From assembly GCF_009931435.1 (NCBI RefSeq), contig NZ_CP043414.1: DNA of 64,000 nt; one strand, given 5' to 3'. Below, one piece after another: positions 32,180 through 45,295 of the stretch (within the stretch, counting starts at the first letter, position 1; each line of letters opens with the position of its first letter). Origin of the DNA: Escherichia coli. GTDB lineage: Bacteria; Pseudomonadota; Gammaproteobacteria; Enterobacterales; Enterobacteriaceae. Under the pieces are notes generated by a model. The model worked only from the letters and a program-made list of their open reading frames with translations. It was not told the origin of the DNA and ran no database searches. A program made the translations under genes and the position numbers.

Positions 32180-35110
<2,931 letters not shown>

Positions 35111-35635: not shown

Positions 35636-36610
35636 ATGACAGACCTAATCCAACGCCCTCGTCGCCTGCGCAAATCTCCTGCGCTGCGCGCTATGTTTGA
35701 AGAGACAACACTTAGCCTTAACGACCTGGTGTTGCCGATCTTTGTTGAAGAAGAAATTGACGACTACAAAGCCGTTGAAGCCATGCCAGGCGTGATGCGC
35801 ATTCCAGAGAAACATCTGGCACGCGAAATTGAACGCATCGCCAACGCCGGTATTCGTTCCGTGATGACTTTCGGCATCTCTCACCATACCGATGAAACCG
35901 GCAGCGATGCCTGGCGGGAAGATGGACTGGTGGCGCGTATGTCGCGCATCTGCAAGCAGACCGTGCCAGAAATGATCGTCATGTCAGACACTTGTTTCTG
36001 TGAATACACATCTCACGGTCACTGCGGTGTGCTGTGCGAGCATGGCGTCGACAACGACGCGACTCTGGAAAATTTAGGCAAGCAAGCCGTGGTTGCAGCT
36101 GCTGCAGGCGCAGACTTCATCGCCCCTTCCGCCGCGATGGATGGCCAGGTACAAGCAATTCGCCAGGCGCTGGACGCTGCGGGCTTTAAAGATACGGCGA
36201 TTATGTCGTATTCGACCAAGTTCGCCTCCTCCTTTTATGGCCCGTTCCGTGAAGCGGCCGGAAGCGCATTAAAAGGCGACCGCAAAAGTTATCAGATGAA
36301 CCCAATGAACCGTCGCGAGGCGATTCGTGAGTCACTGCTGGATGAAGCCCAGGGCGCAGACTGCCTGATGGTTAAACCAGCCGGAGCTTACCTCGACATC
36401 GTGCGTGAGCTGCGTGAGCGTACTGAATTGCCGATTGGTGCGTATCAGGTGAGCGGTGAGTACGCGATGATTAAGTTCGCCGCGCTGGCGGGTGCTATAG
36501 ATGAAGAGAAAGTCGTGCTCGAAAGCTTAGGTTCGATTAAGCGTGCGGGTGCGGATCTGATTTTCAGCTACTTTGCGCTGGATTTGGCTGAGAAGAAGAT
36601 TCTGCGTTAA
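35636..36610 (+). CDS. hemB: Porphobilinogen synthase (delta-aminolevulinate dehydratase) HemB
   Basis: ATG at 35636 gives [28 protein letters not shown]... (324 aa); the track ORF starts 11 codons earlier at 35603. Confidence 0.95.
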
Positions 36611-36620
36611 TGATCATTAT

Positions 36621-36647
36621 GCCGGGTTATCCAACCCGGCATTTCCC
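36621..36647 (+). terminator. Hairpin between convergent hemB and tauD (probable bidirectional terminator)
   Basis: GCCGGGTTATCCAACCCGGC stem-loop followed by ATTTCCCCC; sits in the 39-bp gap between the two stops. Confidence 0.5.
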
Positions 36648-36649
36648 CC

Positions 36650-37501
36650 TTACCCCGCCCGATAAAACGGAATATCCCCAAGAATCGTCGCCCGATGCAT
36701 AATCCGCCGCTGTGGCAGGTAATCCGCATTGGCATAGTGCTGAGTCACGCGGTTATCCCAAATCGCAATATCATTCGGTTGCCAGCGCCAGCGCACCTGA
36801 AACTCCGGTTTAGTGATATGGGCAAACAAAAAACCTAACAAGGCTTCGCTCTCTTTATCGCTGACATCAACAATTCGTGTGGTAAAACCTTCGTTCACAA
36901 ACAGCGCCTGTTTACCGGTCACCGGATGCGTTCGCACAACCGGATGGAGCAACGGTGGATTTTTCGCGACCGCCTCGCGCCAGCGTTGATGCTCATCCTC
37001 GGTTTTGCGGTACTTGTATTCCGGGAACGATTTACGGAAATCATGCTCCGCACGTAGCCCGCTCAATAGTTGACGGAAGGGAGCTGAGAGCGCCTCATAG
37101 GCCGCAATACCGCTGCTCCAGAGCGTATCGCCGCCAGTCGAGGGTAACTCTTTCGCCGCCAGAATCGCCCCTGCGGGTGGCGTTTCAATAAATGTCACAT
37201 CGGTGTGCCAGTTATCGTTATCCGGCGGATTATCGTTATGAGTATCCAGTACGATGATCTCCTCAACCCCTTCGGCATGAGGGTAAACAGGATGAATATG
37301 CAGTTCGCCAAAACGCTGGGCCAGCGCGCGTTGCTGCTGCGGTGTAATGGCTTGATCGCGCAGAAACACCACCTGATGGCGCAGTACCGCATGGTAAAGC
37401 TGTTCAAACTGATTATCGCTTAACGGACGCGTCAGGTCGGCACCTGAAATTTGTGCACCGATATACGGCCCCAGCGGGGTAATGCTCAGACGTTCACTCA
37501 T
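36650..37501 (-). CDS. tauD: Taurine dioxygenase TauD (alpha-ketoglutarate dependent)
   Basis: 283 aa, [27 protein letters not shown]...; HxD...H iron ligands. Confidence 0.95.
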
Positions 37502-38325
37502 TGTACTTCTCCATGCCAGGGCGTCAGGCGGCGCTGTAACGCGCGCAGACCCAGTTCTAAAAGAAAGGCGATAATCGCAATCACCGCGATCCCCGCCAGC
37601 ACCACGTCAGTCGCGAGAAATTCACCCGCTGACTGAACCATAAATCCTAAACCGCGCGTTGCGGCAATCAGCTCCGCCGCCACCAGCGTTGACCAGCCCA
37701 CACCCAGACCAATGCGTAATCCGGTGAGGATTTCCGGCAGCGCGCCGGGCAAAATAACAAACCACAGCACCTGCGCACGGCTGGCCCCCAGCGACTGAGC
37801 GGCACGAATGCGAACCTGCTGCGCGCTTTTCACCCCCGCCAGCGCCGACATCGCCACCGGTGCAAAAATCGCTAAATAGATCAGTAAGATCTTCGAGGTT
37901 TCGCCAATACCAAACCAGATCACCATCAGCGGCAAATAAGCCAGCGGCGGCACCGGACGATAAAGCTCGATTATCGGATCCAGAATGCCGCGCACCGTCG
38001 GGCTTAGTCCCATGGCGATCCCAACCGGAATGCCGATCAACACCGCCGCAAGTAGCGCCAGCACAATGCGCGTCAGGCTGGCTGCCAGATGTTGCCACAG
38101 GGTGGCGTCCATAAATCCTTGAGGTCCGGCAATAGTGAGCAGTTTTGCCATTACCTGTTGCGGCGGCGGCAGAAACAGCGGGCTAATCAGTTGCAGCGCC
38201 GCCACCGCCCACCATACCGTGAGTAAAACCGCTAACGTGCCAATGCTTAAGGTCACCTGACGCGAGAGCGGCCAGCGCCATTTCAGCCGATGCGAATGCA
38301 GTTTTTCATTAATGAGCACACTCAT
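37498..38325 (-). CDS. tauC: Taurine ABC transporter permease TauC
   Basis: 275 aa membrane protein; 4-bp overlaps with tauD and tauB. Confidence 0.93.
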
Positions 38326-39089
38326 GAGAACGCCTCCCGTTGCTCAAATACGCGGCTTAAAACATATTCGCGCATGGCGATGAATTGTGGATCGGACTTG
38401 ATGCTGCGGCTCGGTTCCCCGGCAACAAAGCGGCGGGCGAAGTTGAGCGGCAGGCGTTCCAGCACGCGGCCTGGGCCGGGTGAAAGCAGAACCAGTTCAG
38501 TCGCCATAAACACCGCTTCTTCTATATCGTGGGTAATCAACAGCACCTGCTTGCCCGTCTCCTGCCAGAGTTTCAGCAGCAGGGTTTGCATCTGGTCGCG
38601 GGTGAAGGCGTCCAGCGCGCCAAACGGTTCGTCGAGTAATAACAGCTGGGGATTTGCCGCCAGCGCGCGGGCAATCCCTACCCGCTGACGTTGACCGCCG
38701 GAAAGCTGCCAGATATAGCGTTTTTCTGCGCCTTCCAGCCCCACTTTTTTCAGCATCTGGTGCGCGATTTCCAGGCGCTGTACTTTCTCTACACCTGCCA
38801 GTTGCAGGCCGAATGCCACGTTGTCTACCACATTACGCCACGGCAACAGCCCTTCATTCTGAAAAACCACGCCCCGCTCTGCGCCCGGTCCCTCAATGCA
38901 CTTACCCGCCAGTTGAATGCTGCCATGCTGATAAGGCACAAAACCGGCAATCAGATTCAGCAAGGTGGTTTTGCCGCAGCCAGACGGTCCCAGAACCACC
39001 AGAAGCTCGCCGCTTTCCAGCGTCAGGTTGATATCTTCCAACGCCGGTTTGCCGCCATAATCGGCGTAAAGATGAGAGATTTGCAGCAT
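38322..39089 (-). CDS. tauB: Taurine ABC transporter ATP-binding protein TauB
   Basis: 255 aa; Walker [10 protein letters not shown], signature [15 protein letters not shown], Walker B LLLLDEP. Confidence 0.95.
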
Positions 39090-39101
39090 CTGCGCCTCCT
39101 T

Positions 39102-40064
39102 TTATTGCACGAAGCGCGAGGTCACGTACTGGCTGTAATCATTCGCCACGGCAGGGACTTTGCCCTGATCTTTCAAAAACTGCGCGGTATCAATGATCGC
39201 TTTATTCACCGGTCCGGTCAGTTCTGCCGTTTGTTGCTGCGGCGTCAGATAGGTATTCCCCTTCACCAGCCCCGGAACGTCACCTTCCGGCACGGCGCTT
39301 AAACGCGCCAGCTTGCTGATGTTTTCCGGCTGTTTCAGCCACGCGTCTGGGTTAGCAATGTACGGTTGCTGAGCATCGATGGCGCTTTTAGCGAACGCTT
39401 TCACGACTTCAGGATGTTTCTCGGCAAAATCTTTGCGCACGACCCAGACGTCCAGTGTCGGCGCGCCCCACTGCCCGACCTGTTCAGAATCGGTCAGCAC
39501 CTTGCCATCTTTTTCCAGGGCGTTAACCGCCGGTGCCCAGACATAAGCACCATCAATATCTCCCCGCTGCCATGCGGCGATAATCGCGGGCGGCTGCAGG
39601 TTCACAATCTCAACTTGCCCAGGTTTAATACCCCAGTGTTTCAGCGCCGCCAGCAGGCTGTAGTGGGTGGTGGAGATAAACGGTACGGCGATGCGTTTAC
39701 CAATGAGATCTTCGGGTTTGCTGATGGTTTTCTTCACCACCAGCGCTTCGGAGTTACCCAGTTTTGACGCCAGCAAGAAGACTTCAATCGGCACCTGTTG
39801 GCTGGCTGCAACCGCTAATGGGCTGGAACCGAGGTTGCCGATTTGCACGTCGCCAGAAGCCAGTGCTCGCACGATGCTGGCTCCGCTGTCAAACTTGCGC
39901 CAGTCCACCGTCGCCCCGCTCTCTTTAGCAAAGGTGTTATCAGCCTGAGCCACTTTCGCCGGTTCAGCGGAGGTTTGATAGGCCACGGTGACGTTCACCG
40001 CCTGTGCCTGAAAAGCGATGAATGCCAGTGCGGCAAGAAGTGTGTTACGCGATGAAATTGCCAT
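39102..40064 (-). CDS. tauA: Taurine ABC transporter periplasmic binding protein TauA
   Basis: 320 aa with signal peptide MAISSRNTLLAALAFIAFQAQA. Confidence 0.93.
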   Translation of the reverse strand: MAISSRNTLLAALAFIAFQAQAVNVTVAYQTSAEPAKVAQADNTFAKESGATVDWRKFDSGASIVRALASGDVQIGNLGSSPLAVAASQQVPIEVFLLASKLGNSEALVVKKTISKPEDLIGKRIAVPFISTTHYSLLAALKHWGIKPGQVEIVNLQPPAIIAAWQRGDIDGAYVWAPAVNALEKDGKVLTDSEQVGQWGAPTLDVWVVRKDFAEKHPEVVKAFAKSAIDAQQPYIANPDAWLKQPENISKLARLSAVPEGDVPGLVKGNTYLTPQQQTAELTGPVNKAIIDTAQFLKDQGKVPAVANDYSQYVTSRFVQ

Positions 40065-40294
40065 GATTGTCTGCTCCCCTGTCTTGTTATGGGAGCAGTA
40101 TTTCGTTGCGGGTCAGTTTGATAAAGGAATTAAAACGTCTTGTTAAGAACAAAGCGTTTTTAGAAAAAAACTGGCAATGGTTAGCGAATATGCGCATTTT
40201 GCTATTTTTAACAAACATCGCCTGGTGCAGCGCTCACGCCTCTTATCATGCATACAAATACTGGGGCCGGATAAATTTTATGCTCCAATGCTAT

Positions 40295-40343
40295 ATACTA
40301 TAGGGGGGTATGCATTGACATATATCATACCCCCCTATAGTAT
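40295..40343. promoter_or_regulatory. frmRAB promoter with FrmR-type operator (G6/C6-tract inverted repeat)
   Basis: Perfect 17-bp inverted repeat ATACTATAGGGGGGTAT (40295-40311) / ATACCCCCCTATAGTAT (40327-40343) bracketing a TTGACA -35 hexamer (40315-40320), with TATAGT at 40336-40341; 27 bp upstream of frmR. G/C-tract plus AT-rich arms is the site architecture of the RcnR/FrmR (CsoR) family. Confidence 0.75.
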
Positions 40344-40369
40344 ATTGCGTGCAGATGATGAGGTGCGAA

Positions 40370-40645
40370 ATGCCCAGTACTCCGGAAGAGAAGAAAAAGG
40401 TCCTTACTCGAGTTCGTCGTATTCGGGGGCAAATTGATGCTCTGGAACGGTCGCTGGAGGGTGATGCCGAATGCCGTGCCATACTCCAACAGATCGCTGC
40501 CGTTCGGGGCGCGGCTAACGGGCTGATGGCAGAAGTGCTTGAAAGCCATATCCGGGAAACGTTTGACCGAAATGACTGCTACAGCCGCGAAGTCAGCCAA
40601 TCCGTTGACGACACTATTGAACTGGTTCGTGCCTATCTTAAATAG
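40370..40645 (+). CDS. frmR: Formaldehyde-responsive repressor FrmR (CsoR/RcnR family)
   Basis: ATG at 40370 (RBS GAGG) gives [48 protein letters not shown]... (91 aa). Confidence 0.9.
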
Positions 40646-42715: not shown

Positions 42716-43030
42716 GCATCCGCGCACGCCAGCCGGATGCGGCGTGAACGCCTTATCCGCCTACATTTCGCCCATAAACCGTAGGCATGATAAGACGCGC
42801 ATAGCGTCGCATCAGGCATCTGCGCACAACTGCCGGATGCGGCGTGAACGCCTTATCCGGCCTACATTTCGCCCATGAGCCGTAGGCATGATAAGACGCG
42901 CATAGCGTCGCATCAGGCATCTGCGCACAACTGCCGGATGCGGCGTGAACGCCTTATCCGGCCTACATTTCGCCCATGAGCCGTAGGTATGATAAGACGC
43001 GTCAGCGTCGCATCAGGCATCTGCGCACGA
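42716..43030. repeat. Tandem BIME/REP array, about 3 copies of a ~100-bp unit
   Basis: The unit ...GCCGGATGCGGCGTGAACGCCTTATCCGGCCTACATTTCGCCCATGAGCCGTAGGCATGATAAGACGCGCATAGCGTCGCATCAGGCATCTGCGCACAACT... recurs at about 42731, 42831 and 42931. Confidence 0.85.

Positions 43031-44959: not shown

Positions 44960-45295
<336 letters not shown>

Follow-up and report, generated by a model that had tools for sequence, protein, structure and literature searches.

The tauA–frmR spacer of the window (the whole stretch of 64,000 nucleotides of Escherichia coli DNA that was analysed, with a GC content of 51%) is best explained as the empty allele of a multi-state cassette site, at which the K-12 state is derived and changes of state are driven by recombination; we give this reading as a whole a probability of about 0.75. 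According to it, three contents would alternate between the same flanks, directly upstream of the tauA promoter: an empty state with one putative decayed REP (the window, the JJ1886 haplotype, E. albertii and Escherichia sp. E1V33), the yai cassette (K-12, about 80% of E. coli and E. whittamii) and O-island 20, or OI-20 (O157:H7, phylogroup E and many other Enterobacteriaceae). The empty allele would keep both divergent regulatory regions and lack the yai and OI-20 gene sets. In the K-12-type allele, the whole interval between a point 38 bp upstream of the tauA ATG and another about 103 bp upstream of the frmR ATG would have been replaced, and a very divergent, apparently homologous tauA promoter would stand in for the ancestral one. 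Lineages probably switch state mainly when their tau and frm genes on either side recombine with homologous DNA, and not by new insertions or deletions; in the window lineage, a tract of about 4.3 kb (tauDCBA and the empty spacer) seems to have been brought into a background in which the nearest relatives have OI-20.

NCBIfam equivalog models were used to identify the genes around the spacer: hemB, tauDCBA, frmR, frmA, fghA/frmB and mhpT. The left conserved flank of the variable site is tauA (39102–40064, minus strand; taurine ABC transporter substrate-binding protein), which matches NF008553 over its full length with 693.6 bits and is 95.4% identical to K-12 tauA. On the other side lies frmR (40370–40645, plus strand; formaldehyde-responsive repressor), which matches NF008464 with 189 bits over 91/91 residues; the FrmR protein (WP_001141271.1) is the same in the window, K-12, O157:H7 and JJ1886. 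A yaiL homologue is found between frmB and mhpT in the window, and likewise in strain R32_14_1F. Since the start codon of tauA, read as CAT on the plus strand, occupies 40062–40064 and the frmR ATG stands at 40370, the spacer spans 40065–40369 and is 305 bp long. The contiguous tauA–frmR arrangement is shared by 593–595 of 5,426 complete E. coli genomes, so the adjacency is no artefact.

In MG1655, the two start codons are separated by 5.35 kb containing yaiS, ykiC, yaiP, yaiX (split by IS2) and yaiO. The earlier note on this DNA was thus right about the distance in the window (it had given roughly 300 bp), about the K-12 gene order and about an accessory-genome breakpoint at the site, where three alternative contents lie between the same conserved flanks. 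It had described the spacer as containing only the frm promoter/operator palindrome and the tauA promoter; both regions are there, together with a putative decayed REP element at 40220–40255. In a pairwise blastn alignment with K-12, homology extends to window position 40102 (38 bp upstream of the tauA ATG) and resumes at 40267 (103 bp upstream of the frmR ATG), which places the breakpoints between 40102 and 40103 and between 40266 and 40267. The 164 bp in between (40103–40266) have no blastn match to K-12, in which the counterpart is 5,209 bp long. For a clean indel, the short allele should equal the long one minus the block, and this expectation failed, as the 164 bp have no K-12 counterpart; with 164 bp on one side and about 5.2 kb on the other, the difference is a replacement rather than a clean indel. 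Relative to both other states, 58 bp of the window spacer are private. A repeat search found no direct repeats in the spacer; apart from the FrmR operator, the inverted repeats there are limited to two 10-nt pairs at chance level. No IS similarity was found in the spacer by blastn against K-12, so that it does not resemble the scar of an IS deletion or transposon excision, and the annotations of the K-12 and O157:H7 blocks at the locus include no integrase, which an integrase-borne island would be expected to carry. IS-mediated deletion and integrase-mediated excision were rejected on these grounds (direct repeats, IS remnants and annotated integrases are all absent).

Across the 5,426 complete genomes, the yai block of the K-12 type occupies the site in about 80% (approximately 4,350 genomes at an identity of at least 90%), the empty state is found in about 11% and OI-20 in about 8% (fusRK occur in 520 genomes, in about 450 at the tauA–frmR locus). 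All three states lie between tauA and frmR, as at a multi-allelic cassette site. Some other arrangement is indicated for 17 genomes, in which the spacer query finds nothing better than a 60–80% match; the single one inspected has the order tauA–mmuM–mmuP. This genome, labelled E. coli (strain 'ExPEC', from mussels; L086), has the Enterobacter-like order hemB–olsF–tauDCBA–mmuM–mmuP–AI-2E transporter, no frmRAB beside tau and a tauA promoter only 76% identical to that of the window; it may be a divergent or misassigned lineage. Nearly all empty alleles belong to one haplotype, which is 93.7% identical to the middle segment of the window and includes the ST131 strain JJ1886. Only two genomes, R32_14_1F among them, carry an empty allele at least 99% identical to that of the window. 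In about 450 genomes (O157:H7, O55:H7 and relatives), window positions 40090–40208 are matched at about 94%, and then a different 8-kb block follows, which carries genes for a response regulator, a MASE1 histidine kinase, a UhpC-like protein and an ABC transporter: this block is OI-20 (fusR, fusK, the uhpC-like gene and afuABC). The breakpoints against O157:H7 lie at about 40208 and at about 40267–40278. Concerning the junctions, five empty alleles from three species-level lineages (the window, R32_14_1F, JJ1886, E. albertii and E1V33) are colinear with zero indels, and the K-12-type junctions are common to K-12, CFT073 and E. whittamii. Breakpoints common to all carriers of one state imply a single origin spread by recombination. 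The yai cassette with its AT-rich 5' region measures roughly 4 kb; the GC content of the yai block is 45%, with an intergenic region of 30%, versus 51% for the window.

The tauA leader (40065–40102, minus strand) is invariant between the allele types; the window and K-12 agree at 100% along its 38 nt and diverge beyond it, where blastn places the left breakpoint. The leader contains an 8-bp hairpin, in which 40071–40078 pairs with 40091–40098 (CUGCUCCC/GGGAGCAG) and which includes the Shine–Dalgarno sequence GGGGAG. The fold of the minus-strand RNA at 40071–40098 has an energy of −16.5 kcal/mol (z = −2.9); as modelled, the hairpin may sequester the Shine–Dalgarno sequence, with translation control as a possibility. 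Across genera the hairpin has no clear compensatory changes. Beyond the leader lies the putative ancestral-type tauA promoter region (40103–40208, minus strand), whose function we infer from the sequence and which is common to OI-20-type E. coli and other genera and replaced in K-12-type alleles. On the tauA sense strand (minus) it contains TAATTCCTTTATCAAA at 40117–40132 and, at 40160–40171, a T7 tract (GTTTTTTTCTAA). A consensus promoter scan of the spacer found no sigma-70-like site for tauA, which is unsurprising for an activator-dependent promoter. Sites for Cbl and CysB have reportedly been mapped at the K-12 tauA promoter. The yaiS–tauA spacer is listed with H-NS in a genomic SELEX study (PMC3946193).

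The tauA-proximal 145 bp or so of the window spacer are conserved in Citrobacter, Klebsiella and Enterobacter, and the K-12-type sequence beyond −38 is found only alongside the yai block (K-12, CFT073, E. whittamii). When the two upstream types are compared in register, 52/108 positions match, against an expectation of 30.5 ± 4.5 from 2,000 dinucleotide shuffles, and only two islands are kept between them: TAATTCyTTTA and the T7 tract. Because the in-register match is above chance, the window-type and K-12-type sequences look like very old homologues and not like unrelated DNA. When gaps are allowed, the window spacer does not align convincingly with the sequence upstream of K-12 tauA, and over one range an offset of −21 does as well in identity as register 0. 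Since the local alignment score is marginal (93 of the 2,000 shuffles score equally high), the case for homology between the promoter types is made by the in-register test and the two conserved motifs.

The segment private to the empty allele (40209–40266) is absent from the K-12-type and OI-20-type alleles and consists of one putative, decayed REP element (GCCTGGTGCAGCGCTCACGCCTCTTATCATGCATAC, 40220–40255) with short flanks. The element matches the window REPs at 42983, 45036 and 45137 at 30/36 positions. The REP consensus matches these three other sites of the window with at most three mismatches, where 0 are expected by chance. The E. albertii orthologue of the spacer REP is better preserved and nearer to the consensus than the window copy. 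The well-preserved REPs lie between frmB and yaiL (42983–43018) and between mhpT and mhpE (45036–45071 and 45137–45172, 101 bp apart); K-12 has three REPs at the same spacing, and the 45.0–45.5 kb bin of the window is only 85% identical to K-12.

The right conserved flank is the frmRAB regulatory region (40267–40369, plus strand), delimited by blastn breakpoints; all alleles share a right breakpoint at about 40267 (CCGGATAAATTTTAT). Within this region lie the tandem inverted repeat of the FrmR operator (40290–40312 and 40326–40348; 23 nt, 96% complementary) and the promoter-like site Pfrm (40315–40343, plus strand; 10/12 positions), with the −35 element TTGACA at 40315–40320 and the −10 element TAGTAT at 40338–40343, spaced by 17. 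The arms carry ATACTATAGGGGGGTAT and ATACCCCCCTATAGTAT and overlap the promoter-like site, a pattern which points to a FrmR/RcnR type I operator. An Rfam scan of the spacer returned only sub-threshold miRNA models on the FrmR palindrome; these were rejected as spurious.

Both gene sets are also found at other positions. The four-gene yai cassette occurs on a CNF2 plasmid, on an island in strain 2547 (86% identity) and at an unrelated locus in Citrobacter sp. FP75. One Citrobacter braakii (L090:4107-16783) has a 60%-identical yaiS-P-X-O set between hemB and fusR–fusK–afu; there, the cassette stands in place of the whole tauABCD operon, with a junction in a REP/BIME region. The island and plasmid copies are divergent (86–91%) and lie on the chromosome of strain 2547 (L003:6965-10171) and on plasmid NS-NP030_P1 (L088:5691-8889), and the yaiS–yaiP–acetyltransferase–yaiO copy on the island adjoins an IbrB-like gene, a PAPS-reductase gene and IS66. 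The divergent copy only is present in 579 records, a total close to that of the empty-allele genomes. As for OI-20, a similar block (fusR, fusK, the uhpC-like gene and afuABC; about 93% to O157:H7) is found in E. coli G6/7 (L092:7631-16887). In about 69 genomes an OI-20-like block lies in the ulaE region beside a tyrosine integrase, so the block is also carried by a mobile island.

For the question of which state is older we used a TauA-based scan with one genome per species, of which the best 80 loci were mapped by tblastn (E. fergusonii, E. marmotae and E. ruysiae are not among them). E. albertii and Escherichia sp. E1V33 also have the 305-bp empty spacer, and its colinearity there shows that the empty allele is old. 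Between the window and E. albertii the spacer is 89.2% identical and tauB, tauA, frmA and frmB are 86–92% identical; the spacer is therefore like its flanking genes, as vertical descent predicts, and the empty allele dates back at least to the split from E. albertii. E. whittamii carries the K-12-type block and is the only outgroup with the K-12-type upstream sequence among the best 80 loci. OI-20 is the immediate upstream neighbour of tauA in Citrobacter, Klebsiella, Raoultella, Enterobacter, Lelliottia, Leclercia, Silvania and others, and frmRAB beside tau was not detected outside Escherichia among the best 80 loci. Several outgroup loci lack OI-20; both that were checked (one Enterobacter, one Citrobacter) have mmuM adjoining tauA, with mmuP preceding mmuM in the Enterobacter locus.

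Because the tauA-proximal 145 bp are kept across genera and the K-12-type sequence occurs only with the yai block, the latter is, on sequence comparison, the derived state, and deletion from a K-12-like ancestor is excluded. The earlier note had suggested that the K-12 block is an insertion into an ancestral tau–frm divergent promoter region, or the reverse. Of this, the derived status of the K-12 state stands; a clean insertion into the spacer does not, 164 bp having been swapped for 5.2 kb, and the reverse falls, since 40103–40208 matches Citrobacter, Klebsiella and Enterobacter and not K-12. The divergent tau–frm promoters are not clearly ancestral either, because OI-20 adjoins tauA in many other genera. 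The survey of lineages does not settle the order of the empty and OI-20 states; we lean slightly towards OI-20 adjacency as the oldest arrangement in Escherichia.

The opposite order, in which the empty tauA–frmR spacer is ancestral for Escherichia and the yai cassette and OI-20 inserted there later and independently of each other, stands a little short of even odds. It accounts well for an E. albertii empty allele that has diverged as much as its flanks, for the empty alleles of E1V33 and the B2 strain JJ1886, for the outgroup loci without OI-20 and for the mobility of both cassettes elsewhere (yai on a plasmid and an island, the OI-20-like block by an integrase at ulaE). It is less at ease with OI-20 standing flush with the same tauA promoter in many genera, where the fusR-proximal spacer is also homologous, and for a block to re-enter at exactly the same junction, homologous recombination on the tauA side would have to be combined with an illegitimate join on the frmR side. 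The proteins bear on this as well: those of OI-20 are 83–96% identical between O157:H7 and Citrobacter, and TauA, TauB and HemB of the window are 91–97% identical to those of Citrobacter, so that the OI-20 proteins resemble their core neighbours in divergence, as would be expected for vertical descent.

Concerning changes of state, CFT073 (yai block) and JJ1886 (empty) both belong to B2 and are 99.3% identical in tauCBA and 98.7% in frmRAB, yet they carry opposite alleles with the standard junctions; the allele has therefore been swapped on one background. The genome closest to the window is R32_14_1F (99.6% over the first 20 kb), which has the empty allele too. OI-20 is present in the next relatives (N96, 2017-02-2CC and MFDS strains), which agree with the window at about 99% in the flanks. 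Measured over sliding 500-bp segments, the identity of the window to N96 reaches about 99% at 20–33 kb, about 98.8% at 35.0–35.5 kb and about 99% from 40.5 kb, but only 93.4–97.6% across 36.0–40.2 kb, which corresponds to tauDCBA and the spacer; the drop is confined to 36.0–40.27 kb. Because tauDCBA and the spacer are 93–97% identical to N96 while the flanks are at about 99%, the divergent tract of about 4.3 kb (36000–40266, left end approximate) probably reflects an exchange by homologous recombination that brought the empty allele, with crossovers near hemB/tauD and the frm operator. Among many E. coli lineages, tauCBA (in the tauABCD operon, window 36650–40064) is 95–96% identical, frmRAB 96.5–99.5% and hemB 97–98%, which suggests several old tau haplotypes linked to the variable site. 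As the tau operon is unusually diverse across E. coli (4–5% between many lineages), the direction of transfer is uncertain, and the tract could reflect imports into the relatives instead of the window lineage. Further upstream, window 33500–35000 is 68–79% identical to N96 and CFT073, with neighbouring DNA at 95–99%; this segment, in an ehaB-like autotransporter gene upstream of hemB, is probably a hypervariable passenger domain.

A recent in situ deletion of OI-20 from an N96-like ancestor would also leave an empty allele among OI-20-carrying relatives with flanks of about 99%, and it would explain why the tauA-proximal 113–119 bp are common to OI-20-type genomes at 94–96.5%. We nevertheless consider it improbable: the window spacer is colinear with those of E. 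albertii, E1V33 and JJ1886 and includes a putative REP that OI-20-type E. coli lack there, and left of the spacer the entire tau operon differs from N96 by 3–7%, which a local deletion of OI-20 would not cause. Loss of yaiS–yaiO from a K-12-like ancestor, for example via the IS2 inside K-12 yaiX, has that element and the prevalence of the K-12-type block, by far the commonest state, in its favour, but it can hardly be upheld, as a deletion cannot recreate the 106 bp (40103–40208) that match other genera and not K-12, nor the putative REP at 40220–40255, the spacer has no IS remnant or direct repeat, E. albertii has the same junctions, and the IS2 is a K-12-specific secondary insertion (the acetyltransferase gene of CFT073 is intact).

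With recombination between alleles of a multi-state site as the preferred reading, the consequences concern gene content and regulation. The strain analysed here is without the putative surface-glycan module YaiS/P/X/O (a PIG-L deacetylase, a GT2 glycosyltransferase, an acetyltransferase and an outer-membrane beta-barrel), and it is without the genes for the FusKR fucose sensor and the AfuABC sugar-phosphate transporter at tauA–frmR. The locus is a tidy case of accessory content changing through homologous exchange of whole alleles and not through new insertions. Regulatory conclusions drawn from the K-12 tauA promoter might not transfer to strains with the empty or OI-20 allele. Tentatively, and with more doubt than confidence, we propose that the K-12 tauA promoter is not ancestral but a divergent one that arrived with yaiS–yaiO, with the corollary that OI-20 is ancestral and was lost from most E. 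coli. If so, the sequence driving tauABCD would be a different one in around 20% of E. coli (those with the empty or OI-20 allele) and in most other Enterobacteriaceae, where sulfur-starvation control or silencing by H-NS might differ as well, and OI-20 (FusKR, AfuABC) would be an ancestral enterobacterial block and not an EHEC acquisition. In the literature on yaiO/yaiP/yaiS and tauA/frmR/afuABC, we found no paper that describes the polymorphism as such; an ST131 preprint reports only a 31.9-kb deletion spanning the region. Two minor points may be new: that the promoter of the model K-12 tauA rides on an accessory haplotype, and that OI-20 looks ancestral in the family rather than EHEC-specific. 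The site itself is already known as the OI-20/K-island position, and the finding is for this reason ordinary accessory-genome variation; its practical consequences are modest and it opens no long-standing question.

The site can be compared with several known systems. Hotspots of integration and replacement in the E. coli core genome are known under the term 'organised genome dynamics'. The tauA–frmR site is like them in that several unrelated cargos occupy one interval between core genes and changes of state probably spread by homologous recombination of the flanks. It differs in that there is no tRNA, integrase or att repeat, the cargo ends within regulatory sequence, and cargo of the K-12 type comes with a tauA promoter version of its own. 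The likeness to REP/BIME elements lies in the REP-like 36-mer, the only non-regulatory sequence in the window spacer, with copies at the equivalent junction in Citrobacter and at the yaiO–fusR junction in C. braakii; in contrast, the window spacer copy is single and decayed (30/36 against the local REPs). The frm side corresponds to the E. coli Pfrm, where tandem type I FrmR sites (CsoR/RcnR family) lie over the promoter, with ATAC/GTAT repeats flanking G/C tracts (PMC5146963). The window has the same architecture, a large inverted repeat over the promoter which is nearly identical to that of K-12; two bases differ, both in the loop between the arms, and otherwise there is no material difference. 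Another counterpart is the site of O157:H7 OI-20 and the K-12 K-island (PMC4546632), at which strain-specific blocks alternate in the same tauA–frmR position with identical conserved flanks; the window differs in carrying neither block. OI-20 comprises FusKR and AfuABC and is described as a putative EHEC pathogenicity island, in which the fucose sensor and the sugar-phosphate transporter matter for gut colonisation by EHEC and Citrobacter (PMC4546632). In our comparison, this EHEC island by description stands flush with tauA in many non-pathogenic Enterobacteriaceae, and its presence at tauA therefore looks old and not recently acquired.
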